The translations under genes were made by a program, and so were the position numbers. A stretch of DNA of 64,000 nt from NCBI RefSeq assembly GCF_053078305.1, contig NZ_CP166879.1. One strand, written 5' to 3'. This document shows, one piece after another, positions 33,658-33,714 of the stretch; the first letter of the stretch is position 1, and each line of letters starts with the position of its first letter. A model generated the notes under the pieces. It was not told where the DNA came from and searched no databases. It worked only from the letters and a program-made list of their open reading frames with translations.

Positions 33658-33690
33658 AAAAACCCGCCTTGTGGGCGGGTTCTTAAGAAT
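33658..33690 (-). terminator. intrinsic terminator downstream of the tRNA-Phe 3' remnant
   Basis: Minus-strand hairpin aacccgcc-cacaa-ggcgggtt followed by tttgctttt. Confidence 0.55.
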
Positions 33691-33692
33691 TA

Positions 33693-33714
33693 GTGGTGCC
33701 GGACTCGGAATCGA
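33693..33714 (-). repeat. 22-bp remnant of the tRNA-Phe 3' end (putative att direct repeat at the island edge)
   Basis: tggtgccggactcggaatcgaa is the reverse complement of the tRNA-Phe 3' end as recalled (ttcgattccgagtccgggcacca) with one C missing; no full tRNA follows. Confidence 0.6.

Follow-up and report, generated by a model that had tools for sequence, protein, structure and literature searches.

The window, as we call the whole stretch of 64,000 nucleotides analysed here, contains at ~20000-33545 a complete T2SS-beta operon (pppA, gspS, gspC to gspM), whereas K-12 keeps only yghG, yghF, yghE and yghD at this locus. Farther upstream, at 172-5460, there are genes for an LptG-family permease paralogue, for a serine palmitoyltransferase that exceeded its NCBIfam equivalog cut-off and for an acyl carrier protein, as well as for an SDR epimerase/dehydratase and a fatty acyl-AMP ligase. 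This group of genes, which is annotated in CEC15 too, looks like a sphingolipid-type lipid cluster and is located upstream of yghO and the glc operon. The core DNA of the window from sslE to gspC showed 99.6% identity to E. coli, which identifies the host as E. coli. A non-E. coli origin had been suspected from a best identity of ~94% in the junction region, and was ruled out by the identity of the core DNA; the value of ~94% around the junction is due to its island side. The junction is made up of the following features.

33009..33545, plus strand: gspM/yghD, last gene of the T2SS-beta operon and conserved flank of the pheV site (Pfam T2SSM, E 2.2e-45)
33647..33685, minus strand: predicted native rho-independent terminator of pheV, hairpin 33685-33657 plus T-run (terminator scan)
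33694..33715, minus strand: attR, the pheV 3'-end remnant (pheV alignment; identical to attR in Table 1 of PMC11537424)
33716..64000, no strand: very probably the distal part of a GI-pheV / PAI V536-like island, at least 30.3 kb and exceeding the window (end of K-12 homology; collinearity with 536)

Gene content of the island side

To the right of position 33715, profile searches and open reading frames gave the following features. The assignments were made with Pfam, and the 840-aa frame is listed as an open reading frame.

34002..34667, minus strand: DUF4942 gene, disrupted, N-terminal half in frame (only positions 1-101 of the 190 of the DUF4942 profile)
34961..36665, minus strand: yee module (E 4e-29 to 3e-61), comprising the next four lines
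34961-35449, minus strand: DUF5983
35446-35823, minus strand: CbtA toxin
35913-36281, minus strand: CbeA/YeeU antitoxin
36444-36665, minus strand: DUF987/YeeT
36734-37225, minus strand: RadC
37226-37771, minus strand: antirestriction protein
38038-38859, minus strand: DUF932
39270-39725, minus strand: IrmA
39801..42323, minus strand: 840-aa open reading frame between IrmA and Ag43
42438..45566, minus strand: Ag43/Cah autotransporter adhesin, flu module (AIDA, Autotransporter, AC_1, ESPR)
45893..46804, minus strand: YeeP-like GTPase (MMR_HSR1; "GTPase family protein" in relatives)
48089..49597, plus strand: YfjI/DUF3987 protein (DUF3987, E 2.3e-95)
50360..50566, minus strand: AlpA-family regulator of 68 aa (Phage_AlpA, E 5.4e-9)
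52996-53595, plus strand: Gp2/YagK-like protein
53971-54782, plus strand: two DUF7828 zinc-ribbon proteins
55254-55820, plus strand: YagK/YfjJ protein
57713..62090, no single strand: sugar-utilisation cargo, comprising the next two lines
57713-58498, minus strand: DeoR regulator
58774-62090, plus strand: PfkB ribokinase, MFS/FucP-like permease and aldose-1-epimerase-family protein
62336..64000, plus strand: IS66-family element inserted in the island and continuing past the window end (TnpB_IS66, DDE_Tnp_IS66, zf-IS66)
62418-62813, plus strand: IS66 TnpA
62813-63160, plus strand: IS66 TnpB
from 63171, plus strand: IS66 TnpC, incomplete at the window end

The island contents listed in the first-pass annotation, namely toxin-antitoxin, antirestriction, Ag43, AlpA and IS66, were thus recovered between 33716 and the end of the window. 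These at least 30 kb of island genes form a foreign, mosaic content that is absent from K-12 at this site, and the GC content of several spacers falls to 0.39-0.41, with low-GC stretches at 47-48, 51-53 and 58-60 kb. Compared with CEC15, the DUF4942 gene (33827-34667, minus strand) has a 1-nt deletion and an in-frame stop, and the same lesions are present in IGC_RcoliRes_1.1, where RefSeq marks the gene as a pseudogene. The first ~600 nt of the island of IGC_RcoliRes_1.1 are nearly identical to the window, after which the two diverge. The 840-aa frame had no family match in Pfam or NCBIfam; a "hypothetical protein" of similar size occupies its position in CEC15. Ag43 was recognized as an equivalog by NCBIfam NF033177 with 1856.9 bits (cut-off 1200).

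Regulators of the AlpA type control excision and the integrase in P4-like elements. Apart from the gene at 50360..50566, the plus strand contains at 56127-56516 a frame with an AlpA-like motif (…TGMTDRGFYKLI…) that has no intact gene and is probably a degenerate second AlpA. In a related island (L003), an AlpA-family gene is annotated at the matching position. The IS66 element is located just after the epimerase gene, and homology to other islands stops at 62315-62335. An exact 50-nt pattern across the island/IS66 junction had 0 matches in species-representative genomes, and among the 5,426 complete E. coli genomes not one spans it, so that this insertion appears to be strain-specific.

The pheV remnant and the break with K-12

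At 33694-33715 the window contains the 22-mer TGGTGCCGGACTCGGAATCGAA, a remnant of the 3' end of tRNA-Phe on the minus strand. As a reference we used pheV of K-12 MG1655 (NC_000913.3, 3110366-3110441), whose sequence was read and confirmed. Apart from one missing base, the 22-mer reads as the reverse complement of the 3'-terminal 23 nt of this gene (TTCGATTCCGAGTCCGGGCACCA); it spans pheV positions 54-76, from the first T-loop base to the terminal CCA. The missing base is one G of G69-G71 (the CCC/GGG run), and the fuzzy match comprised 0 substitutions, 0 insertions and 1 deletion. The first-pass annotation had correctly described a tRNA-Phe end with one base missing, and alignment to pheV left only this single deletion as a difference; its coordinates, 33693-33714, were one base low, and what it called the last ~22 nt is better stated as a 23-nt core with a 1-nt deletion. 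It had also remarked that the rest of the tRNA is absent beside the remnant. In accordance, ARAGORN detected 0 tRNA genes in the 64-kb window, and the K-12 alignment breaks right after GAATCGAA. A functional tRNA is a complete cloverleaf of ~76 nt, of which only positions 54-76 are left here, with a deletion. The remnant is unable to make a tRNA, and its sole possible activity is that of a substrate for integrase-mediated excision.

On the minus strand, 3' of the remnant, there is a hairpin with a GC-rich stem of 12 pairs (33685-33657) followed by a T-run. A GC-rich hairpin and a T-run on the same strand after a tRNA 3' end are the sequence features of a rho-independent terminator. The hairpin is identical to the DNA that follows pheV in K-12 and to that after attR in 536, CEC15 and IGC_RcoliRes_1.1; the terminator proposed at this place in the first reading of the sequence thus corresponds to K-12 DNA downstream of pheV. 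The gene order in K-12 is yghD - pheV - yqgA with nothing in between, pheV being 148 nt from yghD, the gspM homologue, and convergent with it. As the first-pass annotation had stated, the intact tRNA of K-12 therefore adjoins the gspM homologue at the position that the remnant occupies in the window. The gspM gene of the window (33009-33545) is collinear with yghD of K-12 and of CEC15. From its stop codon the alignment to K-12 continues through the hairpin to ...GAATCGAA, and this segment, of which ~150 nt separate the stop codon from the 22-mer, differs by only two substitutions and the one-base gap. Homology to K-12 ends exactly at 33715: beyond this position K-12 enters the body of the tRNA (CCAAGGACACGGGG...), whereas the window enters unrelated AT-rich DNA. 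The collinearity up to GAATCGAA implies that the hairpin is the predicted native terminator of pheV, left joined to the displaced tRNA 3' end, and that the 22-mer takes exactly the place that the pheV 3' end has in a site without an island.

To assess how frequent this junction is, a query of 231 nt (33600-33830) was compared with the 5,426 complete E. coli genomes. About a quarter of them (1,292) matched across the boundary into the same island sequence. In K-12-like genomes, only query positions 1-116 were matched, which corresponds to window position 33715, and a tRNA-Phe is annotated there. The break at 33715 is sharp and recurrent across genomes, and the breakpoint base is the same in the window, 536, CEC15 and IGC_RcoliRes_1.1.

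Probable integration into pheV and alternative histories

Relatives with the same scar provide a view of both ends of such islands. In UPEC 536, yqgA is followed by an intact tRNA-Phe, a gene for a 422-aa tyrosine integrase and the pix fimbrial and pgtABCP modules; counterparts of these two modules in the present genome would be located past the IS66 element at the window end. Next come the epimerase-fucP-rbsK-DeoR block, the YagK/Zn-ribbon/Gp2 genes, an AlpA-like gene, the GTPase and Ag43, and then DUF932, antirestriction, RadC, DUF987, YeeU, CbtA, DUF5983, DUF957 and DUF4942, after which the same 22-mer is found. Between 33646 and 62315, the window island matches this PAI V, read in reverse, through eleven collinear blocks (74-99% identity), the sugar cargo block reaching 98.6%. 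The blocks and the 536 annotation both give the order attR - flu/yee - DeoR-rbsK-fucP-epimerase. At attL of 536, the intact pheV is followed by a different hairpin supplied by the island (AATTCATATCAACGGACCTCCACGGAGGTCCGTTTTT), whereas at attR the shortened repeat is followed by the native terminator, as in the window.

In CEC15, ~80 kb of foreign DNA lie between the scar beside yghD and the far end, where a tyrosine recombinase is followed by an intact tRNA-Phe, yqgA and speC. The 3' part of this tRNA-Phe differs by a C67-to-T change, which gives a G6-U67 wobble, and the flank downstream of the tRNA is different too; such a change is as expected if an element supplied that part of the tRNA. 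A different element adjoins pheV of CEC15 (L005 6866-9849): it encodes TraI-domain, ArdC and DUF1281 proteins, and its gene for a 356-aa tyrosine recombinase points towards the tRNA. Together with the altered tRNA and flank, this suggests that the same tRNA gene was targeted a second time, by an integration of non-P4 type.

Taken together, the 22-mer is very probably the attR scar of an island of the GI-pheV / PAI V536 type with a P4-type integrase that inserted into pheV. The anatomy of attR in the window and of both ends in the relatives is seen directly; we infer the integrase chemistry and, from these relatives, the existence, beyond 64000, of attL, the integrase gene and an intact pheV in this genome. 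A P4-family tyrosine integrase would have recombined attP of a circular element with attB, the last 23 nt of pheV, and would thereby have duplicated the 23-nt core from the T-loop through CCA. One copy, at attL, would complete a working pheV at the integrase-proximal end, ahead of the island terminator and the integrase gene. The second copy, attR, would have been left behind at the distal end, where it is still attached to the native pheV terminator and gspM. The window would accordingly contain attR and, of the island's distal modules, at least 30 kb. Within the window itself, no integrase, intact tRNA or yqgA was detected, and neither the K-12 speC-yqgA-pheV segment nor the 536 integrase had matches (blastn, tblastn). 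The first reading had proposed the distal att repeat of an island; a pheV remnant at the K-12 position of pheV, island DNA beyond it and a repeat identical to the published attR of GI-pheV all agree with that proposal.

The scar, its one-base deletion, the site and the modular evolution of the island are all already published. A study of these islands (PLoS Genetics 2024, [quoted passage not shown]; PMC11537424) reports attR sequences for 41 GI-pheV. Its Table 1 gives attR as TTCGATTCCGAGTCCGG-CACCA for 16 strains, including 536, H10407, 55989, 042, APEC O1 and REL606, a sequence exactly complementary to the 22-mer of the window, including the deletion, which is shown as a dash. The coordinates given there for the 536 island (3,128,084-3,176,888) agree with attL and attR as located here. 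According to this study, the integrases of these islands are P4-related, no gene other than intP4, next to pheV, is conserved across all 41 GI-pheV, and GI-pheV with attR average 75 kb. Repeats of 22 bp with a one-base shift relative to K-12 have also been described at pheU and pheV (PMC6174562).

The GI-pheV with a 23-bp imperfect attR (536 PAI V, H10407, 55989, 042, APEC O1, REL606) share attR and terminator with the window. For the 536 PAI V type, the similarity extends to the order of the distal modules, from DUF4942 through Ag43 and AlpA to the sugar cargo. The window differs from 536 by IrmA and the extra 840-aa frame where 536 has DUF905, by the IS66 at 62336 and by the distal flank, which is gspM in the window and an IS110 fragment with kps in 536. 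The GI-pheV of the intP4.1 type (CFT073, EC958, Nissle 1917; 19-bp imperfect attR) use the same site and native terminator, and strain C9 of this type also has a yee module at its distal end, like the window. However, the scar of this type (TTTCATTCCGATTCCGGGCACCA), which in C9 abuts the same native terminator, and its island-end sequence differ from those of the window, in which a search for the TTTCATTCCGATTCCGGGCACCA variant found none. A search across the window for further pheV-derived repeats (25-mer, 15-mer, CFT073-type variant), as a sign of tandem islands, returned a single site. 

The satellite phage P4 has a tyrosine integrase and an attB situated within the 3' portion of a tRNA gene, duplicates the core as direct repeats and regenerates the tRNA at attL. 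The island of the window would follow the same integration logic, with an integrase encoded beyond 64000, but it differs from P4 in its tRNA target and in having no phage structural genes here. The cryptic prophage CP4-44 of K-12 (flu-yeeR-yeeS-yeeT-cbeA-cbtA-yeeW), which is located at a different chromosomal site and is compared here on the basis of the literature and general knowledge, contains the same flu and yee families as the window. This comparison is also made in PMC11537424.

The DNA next to the scar need not be what originally integrated, since the island is a mosaic: its best end-to-end match among complete E. coli genomes had only 89% coverage and ~94% identity, and was located at a paralogous site. 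It may well be, although we lean slightly against it, that the scar is an ancient, fixed junction, and that the adjoining DNA arrived later through homologous recombination between flu/yee paralogues or tandem accretion and not as one mobile unit. In line with this, the island modules recur at several places per genome (median 3-4), for example in a leuX-region island, and the identity to the closest relative shifts abruptly along the first kb of the island. The second element of CEC15 (TraI, ArdC and the 356-aa recombinase) and its variant tRNA 3' end point to successive integrations, and flu as well as yee modules have been documented to recur and recombine, with modular gain and loss (PMC11537424). 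On the other hand, 536 PAI V and the window have their genes in the same order between attR and the sugar cargo. Such a history refines the integration account and does not contradict it, the scar still resulting from integration into pheV. H31, which matched the right-hand 18 kb of the window best, was considered as a guide to the far end of the island and rejected, as its match sits in a different island, beside nanS/nanM; modules are thus common to different islands.

We consider it very improbable that pheV was truncated by a deletion or an IS rearrangement instead of being duplicated, i.e., that pheV was lost at this locus and the 22-mer was left over. The window is without an intact tRNA, the island contains IS elements, and some GI-pheV are reported to be without attR or full-length intP4 owing to deletions and IS (PMC11537424), all of which would fit a truncation. 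However, the breakpoint is exactly the first T-loop base and is the same in the window, 536, CEC15, IGC_RcoliRes_1.1 and the 1,292 genomes, a random deletion would not yield a 23-nt core repeat, and both relatives that were walked end to end (536 and CEC15) keep an intact tRNA-Phe at the other end. A chance similarity of intergenic DNA to tRNA-Phe, for which only the shortness of the match speaks, can be dismissed, because the 15-mer GGACTCGGAATCGAA occurs exactly once in the window (0.09 occurrences would be expected even if 2 mismatches are tolerated), the neighbouring 150 nt align collinearly with K-12 and the sequence is identical at the same locus in thousands of genomes.

Integration into pheV being the preferred account, the imperfect repeat, the DUF4942 pseudogene and the IS66 in the cargo indicate an island that, judged from its sequence, is most likely decaying, largely fixed and probably immobile. 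Imperfect repeats are expected to stabilise islands (PMC11537424).

Origin of the missing base and implications

The second tRNA-Phe locus, pheU, bears on how the repeat lost its base. Downstream of pheU in K-12 (L010 1692-2127) lie the island-type arm that is also present at attL of 536 (L007 661-770) and the integrase pseudogene yjdQ, and a search for an attR-like remnant at this locus found none. The K-12 pheU site thus carries a decayed remnant of a P4-type island without attR. A chimeric query that joined the cadC flank to the remnant of the window and the start of the island identified 925 genomes with the pheU arrangement near cadC. Four distal ends at pheU were inspected (L012-L015: GmM066, CRE444, MIN11 and strain 317). 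All four were joined to a pheU-type flank and to island ends like that of the window; three had the shortened 22-mer and CRE444 had the perfect 23-mer. The same 22-mer, island end and DUF4942 module as in the window are thus found at pheU in three of the four genomes, but the repeat is joined there to the pheU-type flank (AATTCATATAAACGG... and the integrase pseudogene) and not to the pheV terminator as in the window.

The occurrence of the same short 22-mer and island end at pheV and pheU, each with its own flank, is the basis for reading the shortened repeat as carried on the island's own attP and not as decay of the displaced tRNA end. As the deletion is only 5 nt from the locus-specific flank, ordinary homologous recombination cannot have copied it between the loci. 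We nevertheless regard an attP-borne origin as possible but rather doubtful. The G-run is polymorphic, as illustrated by the perfect 23-mer of CRE444, so that recurrent slippage or contraction in the GGG run is still an equally simple explanation of the deletion. The island-end sequences of L013 (CRE444, GGG) and L015 (strain 317, GG) are identical.

The origin of the deletion bears on where the integrase cuts. If the shortened repeat was carried on attP, strand exchange by the P4-type integrase would take place 3' of G69-71, within the terminal 5-7 nt of the tRNA gene, and not in the T-loop, and the imperfect repeat would be a built-in feature of the element. For the annotation of the window, the scar is of use in that it sets the boundary between core and island at 33715/33716. 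The right-hand 30 kb would accordingly be the distal flu/yee and sugar-cargo part of an island of the GI-pheV class, a class associated with pathogenic E. coli.
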